Assembly (NCBI GenBank): GCA_964586255.1
Contig: CAZPGE010000001.1
Span: 133,907-197,906 of the forward strand
Source: an uncultured Candidatus Saccharibacteria bacterium
GTDB lineage: Bacteria; Patescibacteriota; Minisyncoccia; Phycocordibacterales; UBA2100
Direction of reading: 5' to 3'
DNA: 64,000 nucleotides
Positions within the stretch are counted from its first letter, which is position 1, and the number at the start of each line of letters is the position of its first letter. Both the position numbers and the translations under genes were made by a program. The notes under the pieces are model-generated. The model did no database searches, had not been told where the DNA came from, and saw only the letters and a program-made list of their open reading frames with translations. Positions 1,964-51,415 of this stretch are shown in pieces.

Positions 1964-2860
1964 TTAGAGATTCTGCGAGACCGTCTCTGCGGAAGCGCTT
2001 GGGCGAACGTTGTACACGATAATCGCTACAAATACGGCGAGTGATAGCAAGAAGTAGTTGCCAAACCCGAGCACGTCAGTCAGGAGATCGACGAGTGCGA
2101 CAGGAATAAGCGCAAACAGAGCGAGCACATACGATGTCCCGTAGTCGTATGAGAGACCCTTGAATTTCGCGATGAGCATCACGATGAGCGCGGCAAAAAG
2201 TGCGACAAAGAGATATGCCACGACGGAAAAGCCGGTAATCAGGAAGAAAAGGAGTACCGGAAGCACGTAGAGGAATCCATTGACGAAGGGTCTAATCTTT
2301 TCGATAAAGCTCGTAACCATCGCTTTGTCGAGTGTGAAATCCTTTACCTCACTGAGGTCAACGGGGCGGAAGCTGCCCGTCGGATTCGGGACATCCTTCA
2401 GATTTTCTGCCTCAGCTTCATCTGCGACGAACAGTGTCTTTTGCGTGAGTATGACCGGCGCGTCGTACGACGTAAGCTCAGCTACGGTGACTTCGGGTCG
2501 CGTGTCGATGACGGCGAGGTATTGGGGCGATGTAGATGCAGATTCCTTGCCGGGCATGTCGATGAAGTATGGCTGCGCGACATTCGCGCTCGCTTCCCCG
2601 TCCTTTATAGTGACGACGAGCTCTGAAGGATAGATTCCAGACGCTGTATCCAAGAAATTGGTATTTACAAAAAGGATGAGGGCAATGCCGGCCGGAATAG
2701 CAATCATCAGGGCCCACACGACTGATATCCATGAGAGTACGGAGAGCGGTTTCGGTATGCGACTCGATGTTGCTTCCGTGTAGAGCTCAGGGTCGTTAAA
2801 ACTGCGTCGAATAAGTGTCGCTATGCGTGAGATGTAGTTCATATGCACATACTGTCGCAC
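1964..2860 (-). CDS. Hypothetical polytopic membrane protein
   Basis: 298 aa ORF; N-terminal TM helix, soluble middle domain, C-terminal cluster of hydrophobic helices. Confidence 0.55.
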   Translation of the reverse strand: MRQYVHMNYISRIATLIRRSFNDPELYTEATSSRIPKPLSVLSWISVVWALMIAIPAGIALILFVNTNFLDTASGIYPSELVVTIKDGEASANVAQPYFIDMPGKESASTSPQYLAVIDTRPEVTVAELTSYDAPVILTQKTLFVADEAEAENLKDVPNPTGSFRPVDLSEVKDFTLDKAMVTSFIEKIRPFVNGFLYVLPVLLFFLITGFSVVAYLFVALFAALIVMLIAKFKGLSYDYGTSYVLALFALIPVALVDLLTDVLGFGNYFLLSLAVFVAIIVYNVRPSASAETVSQNL

Positions 2861-2884
2861 GAAAGCGAGGGTTGCTCAATGCAG

Positions 2885-4507
2885 CTACGCACCCTGGATG
2901 GGGAGCTCTACAATGAAGCGCGAACCCTTGTCCTTACCCTCGGATTCGGCCCAAATCTTACCTCCGTGGCCTTCCACTATCGTCTTTGCGATGAATAGCC
3001 CGTACCCCGTCGAGTGCACGTTGACTTTGATTGATTCTGCACCTTTCCCGCCCTCGGTGAAGAGATGCTTCATATCTTCTGGCGTGATGCCGACACCCGA
3101 ATCAGAAATTGTTATACGCATAAGATTCGGCGTCCGTGCAAGCTGTATGCGCACGAAGCCCTTGAGCGTGTACTTCACGGAGTTGTCGACGAGATTTCTA
3201 ATGACATGTCGCCTGATTTTTTCTTCGTCACCAACATACATGTAGGCGCCCGTAACCGGTCTTTCAAAGGTGAGTTCAAGACCGCGCGCTTGTGCCTCTA
3301 TCTGAAGATCGCGTACGATTTCGTCTATGGCGGCTACAAGGTCAAACGTGTCTTTTTTGAACGATACTGTGCCGCGTCTCAAATTGGACGCATCAAGAAT
3401 ATCGATGACCGTGTCCACCCCCTTTCTGACATCGGCGAGCGCGAGACCTGACATGTCATGCAGTTTGGGCTGGACTTCTCCATAATCGCCCGCGAAGATG
3501 GCAGCAAATGCTGCCTCGCTCTTGGTGAGATATCCCTTTACCTCGTGACTAATGAAGTGCAAAAGACTTTCCTGCTGACGATTGATGTCCTCAAGTGCCT
3601 TTTCCTGTTTTTCGAGAATTTCTCGCTGTCGTACTTCCCGATCTACACTACGGATTAGGAGTACCCCTATGACGAGCATCACAAGAAAAAGTACCCCATC
3701 TATGACGCGGTCGCGCACATTTGCGTCGAGTAGGAGGCGCGCCAGCAAAAATATCCAAAGCGATATAGTTATAAGTTCAGTAGCGATGACCTTCACATCA
3801 AAGAGACGGTGTTTAAAGATCGCATAAGTGACGGGCAAAACCATAAACACGGTGAACACCTGTCCGAGCCAGTTAAGTGTGAAATATCCAAAATATGGCA
3901 GTGTTAGGTTGGCGACCATTGCCAGAGTCGATGCGCAGAAGTACCCGAGCAACAGATACATGATCTGCCGTTTCTTCGTAGGTTCAACGAGCAAGGTCCA
4001 TTTGCGCGCAAGGATGAAGAGGCCCAGGCCGAATAAACCGCTTATGTACGTAGCATACGCAAGGTAGAAAGGACCGAAGAAAATAATGTTCTCTCCATCA
4101 GGCACATAGACGACGGGTCCAATAATGAGTCCAGGTACAAGCGTGATAGCCACAATGGCGACATTAAGCGCCGCAATAAGCGGGAGATAGTATCTCTTAA
4201 GGGGTATCTGTGGGTGAACTTCGGGAAACAAAAGCGAGAAGTACACGAAAGTACTCGCTATGAATGTGGGAGCGACGTAAAGTCCGATAGCCCACCACTG
4301 TAGATTCTCGAATGCAATGCGGTAAATGATAATCATGACGGACCACCAGATGATGCAAGCGATATTGAACACATACACGCGGTTGGCAAATTCATCGCGC
4401 TTGCGCGAAAATATGAATACACCCAAAACGGTGTTCATCACGACACTAATCGCAACGAGCACGGTCTGGTAGTCGAGAGATATTGTGGAGAAATATGCGG
4501 ACAACAT
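2885..4507 (-). CDS. Sensor histidine kinase with a large multi-TM N-terminal sensor domain; orphan (no response regulator adjacent)
   Basis: 540 aa. About 7 hydrophobic helices in the first ~300 aa. H-box FISHEVKGYLTKSEA. HATPase_c N/G boxes NLVDNSVKYT, SDSGVGI, STGYGLFIAKTIVEGHGGKIW. Confidence 0.85.
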   Translation of the reverse strand: MLSAYFSTISLDYQTVLVAISVVMNTVLGVFIFSRKRDEFANRVYVFNIACIIWWSVMIIIYRIAFENLQWWAIGLYVAPTFIASTFVYFSLLFPEVHPQIPLKRYYLPLIAALNVAIVAITLVPGLIIGPVVYVPDGENIIFFGPFYLAYATYISGLFGLGLFILARKWTLLVEPTKKRQIMYLLLGYFCASTLAMVANLTLPYFGYFTLNWLGQVFTVFMVLPVTYAIFKHRLFDVKVIATELITISLWIFLLARLLLDANVRDRVIDGVLFLVMLVIGVLLIRSVDREVRQREILEKQEKALEDINRQQESLLHFISHEVKGYLTKSEAAFAAIFAGDYGEVQPKLHDMSGLALADVRKGVDTVIDILDASNLRRGTVSFKKDTFDLVAAIDEIVRDLQIEAQARGLELTFERPVTGAYMYVGDEEKIRRHVIRNLVDNSVKYTLKGFVRIQLARTPNLMRITISDSGVGITPEDMKHLFTEGGKGAESIKVNVHSTGYGLFIAKTIVEGHGGKIWAESEGKDKGSRFIVELPIQGA

Positions 4508-4574
4508 GCGTACATATTGTACCGTATAAAGAAGTAGGGCCGACGGGAAAATTCCATCGGCCCCAAGTGTTGTC

Positions 4575-5861
4575 TCATTCCGCCGCGGGTGCGTACGGAA
4601 TTTGAATGGGCACTAGAATCGCCTCGCACTCAGTTGCGGAAAGCTCTCTTCCGAAGGAAAAGAAAGGGAGCTCACCGATGAGTCCGAGTTTCCTGCCGTG
4701 AGCAACGATGTTGAGCGTGCGCTCTACGACGTCGTCAGTGACTTCACCAACGGCGAGGTCCGTAGGCTCGCCGGCGATAGTTGCGAGTATCGTCTCGGCC
4801 AGACAGGTGAACGTGACCGTAGGATCCTCTGTCTGGAACCCGAAATCGAAGTTGCAATTTAGTCCTGGCACTCGCGCCAGAACGTCAATGACATGCACTC
4901 CGTGCTTGGCGAGCTCAGTGCTCGTGTTGCGAGGTTGCGAGTCATCAATTACAACAGTGCCCTCAGAGAGGTGCTCGGGCTTAATTATGGTGCCCGATGC
5001 GTTCGTTACGACGGCGACGTACGCCGACTCATGAAGCGCGGAGAGATCGGTCGCAATGCGCACGCTTGCAAAGCGACCGCTCGCAATGGCTTCATTCGCC
5101 AACGCGCGGAGAGACATCTCCTTGCCGGGAATGTCGACAAGCATGAGCTCGAGGTGCGCCGGTCCGACCCACGTCCGCTTTAAGACACGCATGAGTGCCT
5201 TTCCGGTAGACCCTCCCGCCCCCACAATGGCCGTGCGCACGAGCTGTGCGTCCGGGTGCCTCTTCTCGACAAGCAGCTTGAGATACTCGGCGATCGTGTA
5301 CGCCGTGTATGCGTGACCAGTTGAGACGGCCGGTCGTTCATTGGGATCGCCCATGGCGAATCTTTTGCCGTATCCAGTCATGGACGGCAAAAGTGCCCCG
5401 AGACCGACTCGGCGTACACCCATTTTGGTTGCTAGAGCAAACAGCTCTGCGAGGTGTGCCCGGGTCTCGTTGCGTTCGCCTGTAAGCAAGAGACGTGGGG
5501 TACGTACTGTCGAAAGCAGGTACCCTTTAAATGTCGAGTCTCCAGATTGCACCTGGATTCGCGAGAGCATAATCGGCGTGATGGTCTTCGCGAACCAAAG
5601 GAGAAGTTTCTCGGCAACTCTGTACGGCAGCATATGGAAGAGATGCCGAAGCGCTGGAAATGGACGATAGATGTCGTTGTTTCCATAGACGTCGGTACCC
5701 GTGAACTTCTCGGTACGCGGATGAACCAAAAACGCGAATGTCTGATCGCGACGCATGATGGCCGAAGAAGTCGACCGAAGGACGAGCCAATCGCGACCCG
5801 CAGCGACGAGGGAGTTGACCGTACGGGCCAGCTCCCCAAAAAGAGTCTGACCCTTTGTCAT
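4575..5861 (-). CDS. NAD(P)-dependent oxidoreductase resembling cyanobacterial long-chain acyl-ACP reductase (AAR family)
   Basis: 428 aa. Motifs TGHAYTAYTIAEYL, AIVGAGGSTGKALMRVL (Rossmann) and VIDDSQPRN line up with AAR motifs TGNTHTAYVICRQ, VVGATGDIGSAVCRWL, LIDGGYPKN, recalled from memory. Confidence 0.5.
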   Translation of the reverse strand: MTKGQTLFGELARTVNSLVAAGRDWLVLRSTSSAIMRRDQTFAFLVHPRTEKFTGTDVYGNNDIYRPFPALRHLFHMLPYRVAEKLLLWFAKTITPIMLSRIQVQSGDSTFKGYLLSTVRTPRLLLTGERNETRAHLAELFALATKMGVRRVGLGALLPSMTGYGKRFAMGDPNERPAVSTGHAYTAYTIAEYLKLLVEKRHPDAQLVRTAIVGAGGSTGKALMRVLKRTWVGPAHLELMLVDIPGKEMSLRALANEAIASGRFASVRIATDLSALHESAYVAVVTNASGTIIKPEHLSEGTVVIDDSQPRNTSTELAKHGVHVIDVLARVPGLNCNFDFGFQTEDPTVTFTCLAETILATIAGEPTDLAVGEVTDDVVERTLNIVAHGRKLGLIGELPFFSFGRELSATECEAILVPIQIPYAPAAE

Positions 5862-5960
5862 GTCTGTATACCTCGTTTGCTTGATATTGTGCCCACTGTC
5901 AATGAGCCTTTAATGGTTATACAACAAGACGGGCTTTATATCAAGTTTCGGTGTGGATAC

Positions 5961-6458
5961 TTACGCCCTTGCTATCGCGAGGGCGAAATACGCACCAAGA
6001 AGCCAGTACAGTCTGTATGCATCACTGAAGACCGAGCGAAATGCGTCTCCCAGGGACCATGGGACTGTCGAATCTGGCAATTGTAGGAAGACCACGGTGA
6101 CGACTACCGCGCACGCGAGGCCCGCGATCATGGCCTGTATCGGCCGCATAGAGTCTGCACCGAAATCGACAATGCGGTAGAGCGCAATGAAAAGCCCAGC
6201 GGTGAGAGCGATAAAGACGCCGGTTTGCATGCCAGCTGAAGAGCTCTCTACATACGAGCCAATGTACGCCGCATCGTGGATTGTCTCGGAGAGCAAGAGT
6301 GCGATAGGGAGCGCTATGGCAAGCGCAGTGACGCGCGCGGGACCTGCGCGCAGCGCATCGAATGCGAGGAACAGCGCGACGCCACCAAAAATTATCCAAT
6401 CGATAGTTATCGAGGCGTATACTGATGCAAAGAACTGCGTGACGGACGATAGGTCCAT
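5961..6458 (-). CDS. Hypothetical small membrane protein
   Basis: ORF 5961..6587. The internal Met at 6458 avoids overlap with the dnaJ stop. Several hydrophobic helices. Confidence 0.45.
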   Translation of the reverse strand: MDLSSVTQFFASVYASITIDWIIFGGVALFLAFDALRAGPARVTALAIALPIALLLSETIHDAAYIGSYVESSSAGMQTGVFIALTAGLFIALYRIVDFGADSMRPIQAMIAGLACAVVVTVVFLQLPDSTVPWSLGDAFRSVFSDAYRLYWLLGAYFALAIARA

Positions 6459-6465
6459 CACGACA

Positions 6466-7545
6466 TTATAACCCTTCCGCGCGAAGGTCTTGGATGAGCT
6501 TCTTTGCAGACGAGGATAATTTCTTTGGAAATAGTATATCGATGCGGACGAGAAGGTCGCCGCGACCACCTCTCCCCTGCGGGACACCGAGTCCTTTGAC
6601 TCGAATCATCTCACCGTGCACGATTCCTGCCGCTACCGAGATTGTTGTGTCGCCATCAAGTGTTTGTATTTTGTAGTCTCCCCCAAGGAGTGCGTCGGTC
6701 AGCTTTATTTGCAGAGATGTGAGCAAGTTGTTCCCGTCGCGCGTATAGGCGGTGTCTTGTTTTACATGGAGTTTGACGTACAGGTCGCCAGAACTCCCTC
6801 CGGCAGTAGCTTCGCCGCGTCCGGGCATCCGAATCATCTCCCCATCCGATACACCTGGCGGTACGGTGATAACGATTTCCTCTTGTCGCTTCCTGACACC
6901 GGCTCCGCTACATGTCTCGCACGGAGTCTCCGGCATCTGCCCTCTCCCATTGCACTTCGGACACGCTCTCGTCGTCGTGAATGTACCGAAGAATGAGTTG
7001 CGCGTCTCTCGAATGTCGCCTTTACCATTACATGTCGAGCAGGTTACGAGAGAGGAACCTTTTTTTGCACCGCTCCCCGCACAGGTATCGCATTGACCTA
7101 CTTTCGATACGAGCACGCGTCGCTCTACGCCAAAGATGCTTTCGCGGAATGACAGCTCTATGTCGATTGATACGTCGCGACCCCTTGTTTCCGCTCGCGC
7201 GCCTCCGCCTGCGTTGAAGAACTCTCCGAATATATCGCCGAGGTCAAATTCGAACTGTTGCCCCTGGCCATTGAAGCCTTGGAAGTTGGAGAAGTCGAAA
7301 CCGTTGAACCCTCCTTGCGGTCCGCCTGCGCCGCCTCCTGCAAACGTGCGGCCATAGGTGTCGTATTCGGCACGCTTCTTCTTGTCGGAAAGTACCGCGT
7401 AGGCCTCGCTTGCTTCCTTGAATTTCTTCTCATCACCACCCTTTTTGTCGGGGTGATACTTTTGCGCAAGTTTGCGAAAAGCTTTCTTCACCTCGTCTTC
7501 TGAGGCGCTTTTTTCTATACCAAGTATCTGATAGTAGTCTTTCAT
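6466..7545 (-). CDS. dnaJ: Molecular chaperone DnaJ
   Basis: 359 aa. J-domain with HPD (KYHPDKK), G/F-rich linker, four CxxCxGxG zinc-finger repeats. Confidence 0.95.
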   Translation of the reverse strand: MKDYYQILGIEKSASEDEVKKAFRKLAQKYHPDKKGGDEKKFKEASEAYAVLSDKKKRAEYDTYGRTFAGGGAGGPQGGFNGFDFSNFQGFNGQGQQFEFDLGDIFGEFFNAGGGARAETRGRDVSIDIELSFRESIFGVERRVLVSKVGQCDTCAGSGAKKGSSLVTCSTCNGKGDIRETRNSFFGTFTTTRACPKCNGRGQMPETPCETCSGAGVRKRQEEIVITVPPGVSDGEMIRMPGRGEATAGGSSGDLYVKLHVKQDTAYTRDGNNLLTSLQIKLTDALLGGDYKIQTLDGDTTISVAAGIVHGEMIRVKGLGVPQGRGGRGDLLVRIDILFPKKLSSSAKKLIQDLRAEGL

Positions 7546-7609: not shown

Positions 7610-9478
7610 CTACTGTGACGCGCCACCCTCCGGCGGTGTCTGGTCCTGTGGGGGCTGCTGCGAGGCGGCTTGTCCTGACTGCTTTTGCATGGCCTCACCA
7701 ATCGAGCTCATGGCACTGGAGAGTGCCTCGCTCGCTGATTTGAGTGCCGCCGAGTCGTCTCCCGTTCGCGCAGACTTAAGTGCGTCTATTTTTTCCTGCA
7801 CATTCTTTCGAATGTCCTCGCTCACCTTATCGCCATGTTCCTTGAGAGCTTTCTCAGCGCTGTACATAAGTTGATCTGCACCGTTCTGCGCCTCAACGAG
7901 ATCGCGCTTCTTTTGATCTGTGTCAGCGTTCGCCTCAGCATCTTTGCGCATTTTCTCGACTTCTGCCTCGGAGAGACCCGACGAGCCTTCTATGCGGATT
8001 GATTGCTCCTTGCTCGTGGTCTTGTCCTTTGCTTTTACGGTAAGAATACCGTTGGCGTCGATATCGAAGGTGACTTCTACTTGCGGCAGGCCCCGTGGCG
8101 CGGGCGGTATACCATCGAGGTTGAATCTGCCGAGCGACTTATTGTCTGTGGCCATTGGGCGCTCGCCTTGCACCACATGAATTTCGACAGATGGCTGATT
8201 ATCGGATGCCGTCGAAAAGGTCTGCGAGCGCGATGTAGGAATCGTGGTATTGCGCTCGATAATCTTGGTAGCGACACCGCCCATCGTCTCGATACCGAGT
8301 GAAAGCGGAATAACGTCGAGGAGAAGCACGTCTTTAACATCGCCTTGCATAATGCCGCCCTGGATCGCTGCCCCAAGCGCTACGACTTCGTCCGGATTGA
8401 CGCCCATATGTGGCTTTTTGCCGAAAAACTGTTCTACAGCTTTTTGCATCGCGGGCATACGCGTTTGACCTCCCACGAGAACCACTTCGTTGATGTCACC
8501 TACTTTAAACGGCGATGCTTCAATAGCACGCTTGGTGATGGATATCGCGCGGTCGACAAACTCTGCGGACAGCTCTTCAAGCTTGGCGCGAGAGAGCCTC
8601 ACAAGCAGGTGCTGCGGTCCTGCATCGGTGGATGTGATAAATGGAATGTTTACTTCAGTCTCAAGCGCGGTCGAAAGCTCAATCTTCGCCTTTTCTGCCG
8701 CTTCGTCGAGTCGCTGGCGAGCGAGAGCATCGGTGCGCACATCGACACCGCTATCGCGCTTGAATTCGTCGGCGAGCCAGTTGATGATCTTTTGATCGAG
8801 ATCTTTGCCGCCCAAGTGCGCGTCGCCGTCGGTAGAGCGTACCTCTATCACGTCGTCGCCGACCTCAAGCACAGAGATGTCGAATGTTCCGCCGCCGAAG
8901 TCGAACACGACGATTTTCTCGTTCTTCTTTTTGTTGAATCCGTAGGCGAGAGCCGCTGCTGTCGGCTCGTTGATGATGCGCTTCACATCAAGACCCGCAA
9001 TTTTTCCTGCATCTCGAGTCGCTGCGCGCTGAGCGTCGTTGAAGTATGCCGGCACGGTGATGACGGCCTCGGTAATGGTCTCACCGAGACGCGCTTCTGC
9101 ATCCACCTTGAGCTTCTGCAAAATCATCGCGGAGACTTCCTCCGGGCGATACCACTTGTCGCCCATCTGCACTTCTATTCCGCCGTTGGCTGCTTTTCGT
9201 ATCTCAAACGGCACTGCTGACTTGTCTTTTTGGACGTTGGCCTCGTCGAAGGTGTGGCCTATGAAGCGCTTTATCTGATAGATGGTGTTTTTAGGATTGG
9301 TGACACCTTGGCGTCGCGCTATTTGACCCACCAGCCTCTCGCCTGTTTTTGAGATAGCGACAATGGACGGGGTAGTGCGACCGCCCTCCGCATTTTCGAT
9401 TATTTGAGGTTCACCACCAGAGACAACAGCCATTGCCGAGTTGGTTGTACCAAGATCTATACCGAGTATTTTAGCCAT
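7610..9478 (-). CDS. dnaK: Molecular chaperone DnaK (Hsp70)
   Basis: 622 aa. [16 protein letters not shown], Hsp70 signature motifs. Confidence 0.97.
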
Positions 9479-9576: not shown

Positions 9577-9612
9577 CTCCAGTAAATTCACCAATTGGTG
9601 TATTTACAGGAG
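9577..9612. promoter_or_regulatory. 36-bp near-palindromic operator candidate (copy A) upstream of dnaK: CTCCAGTAAATTCACCAATTGGTGTATTTACAGGAG
   Basis: Imperfect inverted repeat centred on CCAATTGG. Nearly identical copies at 10244..10279 and 51291..51326. About 100 nt upstream of the dnaK ATG. Confidence 0.6.
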
Positions 9613-9636
9613 CGATAGGTTCATTGTAGTCAGAGA

Positions 9637-10218
9637 TTACAGCAAGTCAAATTCTTTCAGGAATCGACGTGCGTCATTTATCTCCTCAGCTACCACATAG
9701 CGGACATGCTCGTCGACTCCGTACCACTTTGCGACTGTAAGTACGTGCTCGTAGCACTCGTGCGGGTAGATAAACACCGAACGCTGATACATCTTCAGCC
9801 CAAAGTCCTCAAGTTTGAGCCGAAAAGACTGGCGCACCGCCTCGTTGCTGCTCGGCAAGTCAAACATGACAATCCGCCATTTGCGGTCCCATCGGCGAGG
9901 CGTATCGAGCGACATTTCCCATATGGCGTCTTCGTGCAGCTGCTTACGACCGGTATCCGTAAGGTGTACGTAGGTATGCGTCCCCTTCTCTTCAAACGTA
10001 AGCTTGTTTTTGCTTTCGAGATACTTAAGCGCCTTCCAAATGCGATTGCGTTCTCGCGGACTTTTGGGATCAAAGATGTCGATAAGCTGTATGGCGTTGG
10101 GCGCCATGGCGGCTCCTGCAATGATGACGCCCGCGCCGACTAGGCGCAGGATATCCTTGGTGAGCTCCCCGCGCCTGTACTCGGCGGCCGTCTTGATGCC
10201 TTTGAATCTTGTTCCCAT
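9637..10218 (-). CDS. PaaX-like transcriptional regulator (winged HTH plus PaaX-type middle domain), lacks PaaX C-terminal domain; sits between grpE and dnaK
   Basis: 194 aa from MGTRFKG... N-terminal wHTH-like segment ...RNRIWKALKYLESKNKLTFEEKGTHTYVHLTDTGRKQL. Then WDRKWRIVMFDLPSSNEAVRQSFRLKLEDFGLKMYQRSVFIYP, matching the PaaX WDGKW...GF... region (recalled from memory). Confidence 0.55.
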   Translation of the reverse strand: MGTRFKGIKTAAEYRRGELTKDILRLVGAGVIIAGAAMAPNAIQLIDIFDPKSPRERNRIWKALKYLESKNKLTFEEKGTHTYVHLTDTGRKQLHEDAIWEMSLDTPRRWDRKWRIVMFDLPSSNEAVRQSFRLKLEDFGLKMYQRSVFIYPHECYEHVLTVAKWYGVDEHVRYVVAEEINDARRFLKEFDLL

Positions 10219-10243
10219 ACGTCGAACATAGCATCCTTTCAAA

Positions 10244-10279
10244 CTCCAGTAAATCAACCAATTGGTGGAAATACAGGAG
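10244..10279. promoter_or_regulatory. 36-bp near-palindromic operator candidate (copy B), 26 nt upstream of the PaaX-like regulator start and overlapping its putative -35 (TTTACT-N17-TATGTT)
   Basis: CTCCAGTAAATCAACCAATTGGTGGAAATACAGGAG. Same CCAATTGG core and CTCCAGTAAAT / ATACAGGAG arms as copies A and C. Confidence 0.6.
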
Positions 10280-10311: not shown

Positions 10312-10854
10312 CTAAGCTTTTATTATCACCTGCGCGGGTCGTAACACTCGATCACCCACACGGTACCCATACCGTAGTATGCGAACGATGTCGCCGGATT
10401 TGCCCGGAGCCTCTGCAAGCTCCTGGATTGCGTCATGCACATGCGGATCATAGGCATCCCCCACTTCCCCAAAGCGGCTTACGCCATGACGGCGTAGACC
10501 TTCGATAAGTTGGTTGCGCACGTTCTCCATTCCTCCGCGCCAGACACTGTCGGTTTTTTCCCACGCATCTCCTGACATTGCCATATCAAAACTGTCGAGC
10601 GCAGGAAGAATGTCTTCGACAATGCCTTCGAGTTTCCGCTCGGCGTGGCGTTCGGCCTGGAGCATCAAATCCTTCTTTGCGTTGACGGAGTCCGCCTTGC
10701 AGCGTTGCCATCCATCGAGGTACTCCTGACGTTCGGATTTCGTCTTCTCTAGCTCGTCGCGCAATTTTTGCATCTTAGCCTTTGCGGCACCGAGTGAACC
10801 CATCTCATCCTCGGGCTCGAAATCGATATCCTGATCTTCGCTGTGCGCATTCAT
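10312..10854 (-). CDS. grpE: Nucleotide exchange factor GrpE
   Basis: 180 aa; acidic N-terminus, coiled-coil, GrpE C-terminal beta domain. Lies upstream of dnaK/dnaJ. Confidence 0.9.
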   Translation of the reverse strand: MNAHSEDQDIDFEPEDEMGSLGAAKAKMQKLRDELEKTKSERQEYLDGWQRCKADSVNAKKDLMLQAERHAERKLEGIVEDILPALDSFDMAMSGDAWEKTDSVWRGGMENVRNQLIEGLRRHGVSRFGEVGDAYDPHVHDAIQELAEAPGKSGDIVRILRYGYRVGDRVLRPAQVIIKA

Positions 10855-10946
10855 GACGGAGCGAGTATATCATTTCGCAGTATGAAAACGCAAAAGACCT
10901 GTTTCGGGGCCATTTACTGCTTGGGATATCGCATGCATCACGGATA

Positions 10947-10972
10947 CATTGCGAGCCGTCGCTCGCAATGTT
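10947..10972. promoter_or_regulatory. Inverted repeat ACATTGCGAGC-cgtc-GCTCGCAATGT upstream of the grpE promoter
   Basis: 11-bp perfect arms with a 4-nt spacer. About 50 nt upstream of a TTGCGT-N18-TATACT promoter-like element that ends 9 nt before the grpE ATG. Confidence 0.35.
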
Positions 10973-11021
10973 CCGCGACCCCGCCTCGCAGACCTCGCCT
11001 GGAAGCTCGGTCGCTCCGGCC

Positions 11022-11070
11022 GTCCAAGCGATAGAAAAAAGCCCCACTGGGGCTTTTTTCTATCGCTTGG
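11022..11070. terminator. 47-bp near-perfect palindrome (CCAAGCGATAGAAAAAAGCCCCACTGGGGCTTTTTTCTATCGCTTGG); bidirectional terminator or protein-binding site
   Basis: GC stem flanked by an A6 tract on one side and a T6 tract on the other. Located between rpsI and grpE. Confidence 0.5.
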
Positions 11071-11159
11071 ACCACTCGTGGTACTGGGAAACCCACGGTT
11101 TTCCCATTCCTTCCTCCACGGGGAACCTGCTGGTTCCCCGACCCCCTCCTCCCTCAGTT

Positions 11160-11196
11160 AAACAAAAGATGTCCCGCAAGGGACATCTTTTGTTTT
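11160..11196 (-). terminator. Rho-independent terminator of the ribosomal-protein/rpoA operon (after rpsI)
   Basis: GATGTCCC-gcaa-GGGACATC hairpin flanked by an A tract and a T tract. Immediately downstream of the rpsI stop on the minus strand. Confidence 0.65.
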
Positions 11197-11201
11197 CAAA
11201 G

Positions 11202-51261: not shown

Positions 51262-51290
51262 AGTGTATCTTTTCTCTGTCTTCTGCACTA

Positions 51291-51326
51291 CTCCTGTATT
51301 TTCACCAATTGGTGAATTTACTGCAG
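51291..51326. promoter_or_regulatory. 36-bp near-palindromic operator candidate (copy C), 30 nt upstream of the uvrA ATG: CTCCTGTATTTTCACCAATTGGTGAATTTACTGCAG
   Basis: Its reverse complement CTGCAGTAAATTCACCAATTGGTGAAAATACAGGAG differs from copy A at only a few positions. Confidence 0.6.
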
Positions 51327-51415
51327 TTCGCCTAGAGAAGGAGTCTCTCAAATCTGCAAACAATTCCGACCCCCGCTTTGCGCTAGGGGTTGGTAGGGGC
51401 ACTATATCACGCGGG

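Follow-up and report, generated by a model that had tools for sequence, protein, structure and literature searches.

In a 64,000-nt stretch of DNA from an uncultured Candidatus Saccharibacteria bacterium (the whole of which is called here the window), a gene for a small winged-helix protein, X, stands between grpE and dnaK. I propose that X, which has the fold of PaaX, represses both its own gene and dnaK-dnaJ, acting through a 36-bp palindrome that precedes its own gene and dnaK. This much is probable. That X is also the heat-shock switch of these organisms is a more tentative idea, one on which my doubt slightly outweighs my confidence. The minus strand of the window reads grpE, X, dnaK, dnaJ, and the features that matter most are these:

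9637-10218, minus strand: gene X, encoding the 193-amino acid regulator (open reading frame, Pfam, AlphaFold2 model, Foldseek).
10244-10279, palindromic: operator O_X, in the spacer between grpE and X (palindrome and conservation); the predicted -35 element of X lies in the arm nearer the promoter.
9577-9612, palindromic: operator O_dnaK, in the spacer between X and dnaK (palindrome and conservation); it starts 10 nt past the -10 box, which puts it at about +4 to +39 of the predicted dnaK transcript.
7610-9478, minus strand: dnaK, the first gene under the proposed control (HSP70, E=7e-244).
6466-7545, minus strand: dnaJ, 3' of dnaK and presumably co-transcribed with it (DnaJ, DnaJ_C and DnaJ_CXXCXGXG domains).

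An initial annotation of this DNA had described X as a winged helix-turn-helix protein of 194 residues encoded between grpE and dnaK. The place and the winged helix are borne out by the reading frame and by the structural model. The length is not: with the stop codon counted among the 582 nt, the protein has 193 residues. Its real start is the ATG at 10218, judging from homologues, which begin MxTKFKG, and from the fact that an extension to an upstream TTG would cross the operator. The protein is built as follows:

Residues ~18-86: winged helix, with the recognition helix at 54-69.
Residues 88-101: linker helix.
Residues 108-180: PaaX_M/Cas2-like domain.

The same annotation saw in X the middle domain of PaaX without the C-terminal domain of that protein, and here profile, model and structure search agree. 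Pfam's PaaX_M (PF20803) matches residues 108-180 with E=3.8e-18 and 65.8 bits against a cut-off of 24, while PaaX_C (PF08223) finds nothing in X at E<=1, the protein ending 13 residues past the PaaX_M match. Longer relatives (P0102, P0103) do carry PaaX_C. The N-terminal PaaX domain of Pfam does not match X either, though the AlphaFold2 model has a winged helix at that place. The model (predicted local distance difference test score, pLDDT, 86.5; built on 35 homologues) has helices at 18-29, 42-48 and 54-69 and a wing at 73-86, and beyond the linker helix a beta-alpha-beta-beta-alpha-beta domain with a terminal helix. Compared by Foldseek with the PDB, it finds as its top match PaaX of E. coli (8a39; E=8e-6, 190 aligned columns, 17% identity), with 3kfw and 3l09 as other PaaX-like matches; the winged helix by itself matches regulators of the MarR, PadR and AF1382 types. 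No profile in the hidden Markov model search placed X in a characterised family with a different operator. The protein is, then, a winged-helix protein of the PaaX fold whose nearest known structure is PaaX itself.

What would such a protein bind? The palindrome, CTCCWGTAAAT-N3-CCAATTGG-N3-ATTTACWGGAG, 36 bp in length, is found three times in the window, as against 0.00 expected from shuffled sequence. Two of the copies are O_X and O_dnaK, just where the initial annotation had put palindromic operators. The third stands before uvrA and will be taken up later:

51291-51326, palindromic: third copy of the operator, 30 nt before the ATG of uvrA (51261), within an insertion of about 96 bp.

A weight matrix made from the sites of relatives gives these three copies 53-59 bits and nothing else in the 64 kb more than 8 bits. 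The same scan of the window finds no operator upstream of grpE, uvrB or uvrC.

The arrangement is not peculiar to this organism. A word-indexed protein search yielded 103 homologues of X, almost all of 190-196 amino acids, from assemblies named as Kaiserbacteria, Parcubacteria, Paceibacterota and Minisyncoccota. Relatives of X were also sought in one genome per species, where they lie in at least 561 stretches; 80 loci were kept for comparison, with flanks of up to 10 kb. Sixteen of these (L001-L016) encode proteins at least 46% identical to X and the other 64 proteins at most 40% identical, and four additional orthologues (L100-L103) came from exact look-up. All 16 of the closer loci, and all four additional ones, have both grpE and dnaK around X. 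The immediate order grpE-X-dnaK(-dnaJ) is found in 13 of the 16 and again in L100-L103; grpE lies elsewhere in the locus in L012, and one to three genes come between X and dnaK in L014-L016. Among the 64 more distant loci, only L029 gives matches to both grpE and dnaK. No paa genes stand next to the orthologues, whose neighbours are grpE and dnaK. The linkage of X orthologues to dnaK is thus consistent.

So is the presence of the operator. Of 21 loci, 20 have the palindrome before dnaK and about 18 have it before X. An inserted gene parts X from dnaK in L015 and L016, and there the operator still stands directly before dnaK. Its sequence differs from lineage to lineage, with CCAATTGG, AACAATTGTT, CGCAATTGCG, GCAGCTGC, ACAGCTGT or ACATATGT at the core and CTCCWGTAAAT, GGCTGACAAA, GTCTAACAAA or GTCTTGTAAA as the outer arm. 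Within one genome, however, both copies change together and palindromy is kept. The general form is nTCnnGTAAAT-N4-CAnnTG-N4-ATTTACnnGAn. Counted over 40 sites, all 80 half-sites have the CA of the central CAnnTG (half-site positions 16-17), and AAA (8-10) and TC (2-3) are nearly invariant. When 241 million metagenome records were scanned with the operator pattern, 19 loci were returned, of which eight were X/dnaK loci and one was a second site on a contig with such a locus; those inspected among the remaining matches (L086, L089) came from unrelated organisms. Both the comparison of loci and the metagenome scan therefore have the palindrome accompanying X, and the former has the two evolving together.

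The center of the operator has a character of its own. At all loci the CA and TG steps of CAnnTG are constant and the two bases between them vary. The invariant steps may be there to let the DNA kink or bend between the outer blocks, which lie about 23 bp from each other, and not for contacts specific to a base.

The outer arm behaves differently, changing in step with the recognition helix. Where the helix reads IWKA[IL]KYLE (K62, K65), the arm is CTCC.GTAAAT. Where position 62 is N, S or D and position 65 is R, H, Q or N, the arm is of the kind GTCT, GGCT, GTCC or CTCG. The individual pairings are D62 with CTCGAGTAAAT (L006), N62 with GGTAAGTAAAT (L009), S62 and R65 with GGCTGACAAAA (L004), and N62 and R65 with GTCTAACAAAT (L011), while N62 and H65 (L100 and L101), N62 and Q65 (L102) and S62 and N65 (L103) go with arms starting GTCT, GTCC or GGCT. 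At least three of the changes of helix and arm look independent, because L004, L006 and L009 group with K62 loci by overall identity, which was the measure of independence used here and not a formal phylogenetic test. Such covariation, as far as an alignment can speak to it, is what direct recognition of the operator by X predicts.

If X binds the operator, what would be the consequence? The answer depends on where the operators lie with respect to promoters, and at both genes the predicted promoter is close at hand:

9623-9650, minus strand: predicted promoter of dnaK-dnaJ, with TTGACT, 16 nt and TACAAT (promoter scan; 10 of 12 consensus positions matched).
10225-10253, minus strand: predicted promoter of X, with -35 element TTTACT (10253-10248, within O_X), a 17-nt spacer, -10 element TATGTT (10230-10225) and 6 nt to the ATG.

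When 21 loci are aligned on the dnaK operator, about 20 of them have an element of the form TTGACT, 16-18 nt, TAnAnT, ending 0-12 nt upstream of it. From this predicted spacing the operator covers about +1 to +40 and, by analogy with CIRCE (controlling inverted repeat of chaperone expression), that would be the classic position for a repressor. The -35 hexamer of dnaK lies within the last codons of X, which read F-D-L-L (TTT GAC TTG CTG) and then stop (9637-9650), and these bases are therefore constrained both by coding and by the promoter. The ending is FELE or FSLN, not FDLL, in L015 and L016, whose X gene is not next to dnaK.

The promoter of X has a geometry of its own, kept in about 15 loci: TTTACW in the operator arm, 16-17 nt, TAnnnT, 6-7 nt, and then ATG or GTG. 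With 6-7 nt from the predicted -10 element to the start codon, the X mRNA should be leaderless or nearly so, and too short at its 5' end for a Shine-Dalgarno sequence. From the end of the operator of X to the start codon there are 2-5 nt in L011 and L100. Altogether X presents the layout of an operon-embedded autoregulated repressor, in which the same operator stands at its own promoter and at that of the chaperone genes and overlaps predicted core elements of both.

The gene, its fold, the synteny, the conservation of the operator, its covariation with the protein and its overlap with promoters can all be read directly. To go from there to repression rather than activation, to an oligomeric state, to a signal and to a response to heat is to infer a mechanism, which I suggest runs as follows. 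The winged helix of X would bind DNA and the Cas2-like domain would dimerise, as it does in PaaX, so that a dimer, possibly a dimer of dimers, would sit on the 36-bp palindrome. Occupancy of O_X would cover the -35 element of X's own promoter, producing negative autoregulation. Occupancy of O_dnaK would cover the start of dnaK-dnaJ transcription, just past the -10 element of a strong sigma-70-type promoter, and would block RNA polymerase. Heat or proteotoxic stress would then be the likely trigger that lifts repression, perhaps through lability of X itself or through titration by a chaperone, in the manner of HspR and DnaK or of HrcA and GroEL. The conserved regulon would comprise X and dnaK-dnaJ, to which individual strains add targets, in this case uvrA by a recent insertion.

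Several observations weigh against this mechanism or part of it. The promoters and transcription starts are predictions from consensus and conservation alone. X is without a recognisable sensor domain. Loci L014-L016 have no clear autoregulatory site. Boxes resembling a -10 element occur downstream of the dnaK operator as well (in the window TTGCAC, 17 nt, TATAGT), and there may be a second dnaK promoter at that place, free of repression. Finally, X may be a narrow, dnaK-specific feedback regulator and not a general heat-shock repressor, since grpE is not covered and the regions upstream of groESL, clpB and lon lie outside the data.

Grant that X represses dnaK-dnaJ. The signal could nonetheless be something other than heat, perhaps redox state, sensed through Cys155, or DNA damage. 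The cysteine is conserved in at least 90% of homologues, uvrA comes under the same operator in this strain, and genes for membrane or secreted proteins do so in others. But no target beyond X and dnaK-dnaJ is conserved, uvrA has the site in this strain alone, and Cys155 is missing in P0098, P0099, P0102 and P0103 and may be structural. I consider a signal of this kind unlikely.

A slightly poorer candidate still is the idea that X activates dnaK-dnaJ and itself, from promoters downstream of the palindrome. O_X is centered near -43, where class II activators also bind, and if the -10-like boxes downstream of O_dnaK (present in L001 as in the window) are the ones that count, then that operator would lie near -60. 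Those boxes, however, have no conserved position, while the upstream dnaK promoter is near consensus and does not change its spacing across about 20 loci, where its -10 element is followed at once by the operator. The X operators of L011 and L100 come so close to the start codon that no space is left for a downstream promoter. Moreover, regulators of the PaaX, MarR and PadR kinds are typically repressors.

One might also suppose that the palindromes work as RNA hairpins (a thermometer, a stabiliser or a terminator) and that X is unrelated to them or binds RNA. Transcription from the predicted promoter would include the dnaK palindrome, which could fold at the 5' end of the message, and the Cas2-like fold is known in proteins that cleave RNA as well as in those that cleave DNA. 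Yet the six central nucleotides (CAnnTG) form a perfect palindrome in most sites, which an RNA loop does not need. Complementarity, high at the center and in the outer arm, falls to 0.5-0.78 at pairs 5-9, and 14 of 140 arm mismatches are of the G:T type, which is no enrichment for wobble. O_X overlaps the -35 element and so is not transcribed from that promoter, the operator sequence covaries with the recognition helix of X, and no Rfam family matches the region. An explanation by RNA structure is very improbable.

It is barely conceivable that X is a genuine Cas2 or a genuine PaaX, as public annotations have it: the Cas2 profiles score just above their cut-offs (TIGR01573, 29.7 bits against 24.5; PF09827, 24.2 against 23.8) and the WDRKWR..FD motif has an Asp that never varies, but the match is confined to about 37 residues (114-150) of a 193-residue protein with a fused winged helix, there is no CRISPR array in the window, none of the genes called beside X, here or at the orthologous loci, is a cas gene, and as for PaaX, NCBIfam's TIGR02277 gives 32.4 bits against a cut-off of 264.55, PaaX_C is missing, and every orthologue has grpE and dnaK for neighbours, with no paa genes. 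The sources nonetheless name homologues of X either "PaaX" or "CRISPR-associated endonuclease Cas2" (P0016, P0017, P0035 and P0067 are examples). From the lack of an array in the window and the shortness of the match, the "Cas2" names are probably a systematic misannotation of X orthologues in genomes of Patescibacteria, one that could distort surveys of CRISPR-Cas systems in that group.

I return to X as a repressor, and to how far its regulon extends. One limit is set by grpE:

10312-10854, minus strand: grpE, the conserved upstream neighbour, outside the operator-controlled unit (PF01025, E=2e-33).

The initial annotation had spoken of a grpE-dnaK-dnaJ operon. The three genes are not one controlled unit, for grpE lies upstream of the operator and has a promoter-like region of its own, with terminator-like hairpins before it. 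The 345-bp gap between rpsI and grpE (10855-11201, minus strand) contains two strong terminator-like hairpins, at 11160-11195 and ~11030-11070, and has no match in Rfam; in relatives it has small unannotated open reading frames of 39-85 amino acids.

The second limit concerns DNA repair. The initial annotation had X controlling genes of nucleotide excision repair, a claim that is overstated on two counts: uvrB and uvrC lack the site, and the site before uvrA belongs to this strain only. The comparison is with the seven loci encoding the closest UvrA homologues (L104-L110; 87-98% identical), which share the neighbourhood uvrB-murB-uvrA-carB. The operator is absent from all seven, including one with a UvrA that is 98% identical, so uvrA is ruled out as a conserved member of the regulon and its operator must be a very recent gain. 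The alignment reveals how it came:

~51262-51357: strain-specific insertion of ~96 bp, carrying the third operator (alignment with L104-L110).

On one side of the insertion is a conserved TGnTATAGT promoter with its GC-rich leader hairpin, on the other the ATG of uvrA, and the flanks of the inserted DNA are unlike those of O_X and O_dnaK. An operator has thereby come to separate the uvrA start codon from a conserved promoter and leader, which gives a view of regulon growth in progress. The uvrA leader itself (~51358-51405, minus strand) is conserved in eight genomes, with the extended -10 element TGnTATAGT followed, close ahead of the start codon, by the GC-rich hairpin CCAACCCCTAGCGC...GCGGGGGTCGG.

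Other strains appear to have added targets of their own. In L004 an additional operator, perfect or nearly so (5058-5093), lies beside a gene for a 218-amino acid membrane protein, and in L081 an additional near-perfect one (5362-5391) precedes a gene for a 659-amino acid secreted protein. By their operators, both genes qualify as putative lineage-specific members of the regulon. Pfam has no match for either protein, nor for the product of the gene inserted in L015.

Has X taken the place of a known heat-shock repressor? The initial annotation said so, placing X in the position of hrcA and reporting no gene for HrcA or HspR and neither of their operators, CIRCE and HAIR (HspR-associated inverted repeat). 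The position is not literally that of hrcA, for canonical hrcA sits upstream of grpE and X sits between grpE and dnaK. The absences do hold within the 64-kb window, which says nothing of the genome as a whole. CIRCE (TTAGCACTC-N9-GAGTGCTAA) is found neither in the window nor at the orthologous loci, and HAIR (CTTGAGT-N7-ACTCAAG) neither in the window nor in the loci fetched. The HrcA profile of Pfam does not match X, a tblastn search of the window with HrcA of Patescibacteria was negative, and no HrcA is encoded at the orthologous loci. A crude search of the six-frame translation of the window for a MerR-like motif, of the HspR type, found none.

The distant locus L029, where the protein is 30% identical to X, bears on the question. 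Over positions 2326-6900 it has CIRCE, hrcA (Pfam HrcA, E=3e-14), grpE, three open reading frames, the X-like gene and dnaK, and the spacer between the last two contains both a palindrome of the X type (GTCACA...GCACGTGC...TGTGA) and a CIRCE-like element. An X-like system can evidently coexist with HrcA and CIRCE, as both are present at one locus. HspR and HrcA likewise coexist in Helicobacter and Campylobacter. The spacer suggests dual control, and it hints at how HrcA could later leave such a locus. That X has replaced HrcA in the clade of Kaiserbacteria type is plausible, though not proven, viewed as it is from 64 kb and flanks of no more than 10 kb.

X has a great many relatives. A profile search of 1.84 billion representative proteins found 5,404, 2,960 and 847 clusters (at 50% identity) with E<=1e-3, 1e-10 and 1e-30, respectively. 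Among the best 150 matches nearly all are of 167-241 amino acids, most of them about 180-200, and the dnaK-linked orthologues of X account for about two of the clusters. Many distant relatives have palindromes of 34-56 bp, some of them perfect, just before their own start codons (L017, L018, L022, L032, L042, L049 and others), often centered on CTATAG or CATATG. With such palindromes at their own genes, the short proteins that join a winged helix to a Cas2-like domain appear to make up a large family of transcription factors that regulate their own genes, and X, to judge from sequence, looks like a branch of it dedicated to dnaK.

Patescibacteria are ultra-small bacteria with tiny genomes and few recognisable regulators, and no stress circuit of the group is known to have been worked out so far. 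No description of the X group as a chaperone regulator, or of any chaperone regulator specific to Patescibacteria, was found in the full-text literature searched, which includes few subscription journals; the initial annotation, too, had thought the system undescribed. What emerges from sequence is a complete circuit that can be tested. It has a regulator with its 36-bp operator, two promoters, a code that relates positions 62 and 65 of the recognition helix to the outer bases of the operator, and a minimal regulon. I would go further, to something possible if short of probable, that X founds an independent family of chaperone repressors beside HrcA, HspR, CtsR and RheA, belonging to Paceibacteria of the Kaiserbacteria type and made from the PaaX core minus its sensor. 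It would be the primary switch for proteotoxic stress, sensing through its own lability or through DnaK/DnaJ, and one branch of the very large family that combines a winged helix-turn-helix with a Cas2-like domain. If so, proteins of that family may be among the main transcription factors of Patescibacteria.

How does X compare with systems that are known? Its proposed circuit, an autoregulated repressor embedded in the operon, is of a familiar type; what is unexpected is the scaffold, and that in a lineage whose regulation is essentially unknown. Two well-studied chaperone repressors are similar in layout. HspR, which acts at HAIR in Actinobacteria, Helicobacter, Campylobacter and Deinococcus, is like X in having its gene in the dnaK operon, in autoregulation, in palindromic operators and in a small chaperone regulon. 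It differs in belonging to the MerR family, with a fold and operator unlike those of X, in having its gene at the end of the operon and in using DnaK as corepressor. HrcA is also a winged-helix repressor from the grpE-dnaK-dnaJ cluster, and CIRCE, too, is a long inverted repeat between promoter and start codon. The two proteins have no relationship in sequence or domains, and their genes stand on opposite sides of grpE.

The resemblances in fold lie elsewhere. Cas2 shares with X the ferredoxin fold and a conserved N-terminal strand with Asp, but it is a stand-alone protein of about 90-100 amino acids encoded beside cas1 and a CRISPR array, whereas in X the domain is fused to one that binds DNA. 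PaaX, the repressor of the paa genes in E. coli and Pseudomonas, is closer. It is autoregulated, as X probably is, and has a winged helix, which in X is seen in the model, together with a Cas2-like domain; its operator, as at X, is a long inverted repeat, of 39 bp as compared with 36. In E. coli that operator is TGATTC-N27-GAATCA, a long and widely spaced inverted repeat, at which PaaX represses by competing with RNA polymerase; its middle domain serves dimerisation and its C-terminal region the response to phenylacetyl-CoA (PMC9493321). X is about 17% identical to PaaX and lacks the ligand-sensing C-terminal domain, so that it has 193 amino acids in place of about 305. Its targets are dnaK-dnaJ, and its operator is unrelated in sequence to that of PaaX, with the invariant CAnnTG at the center as an additional feature.

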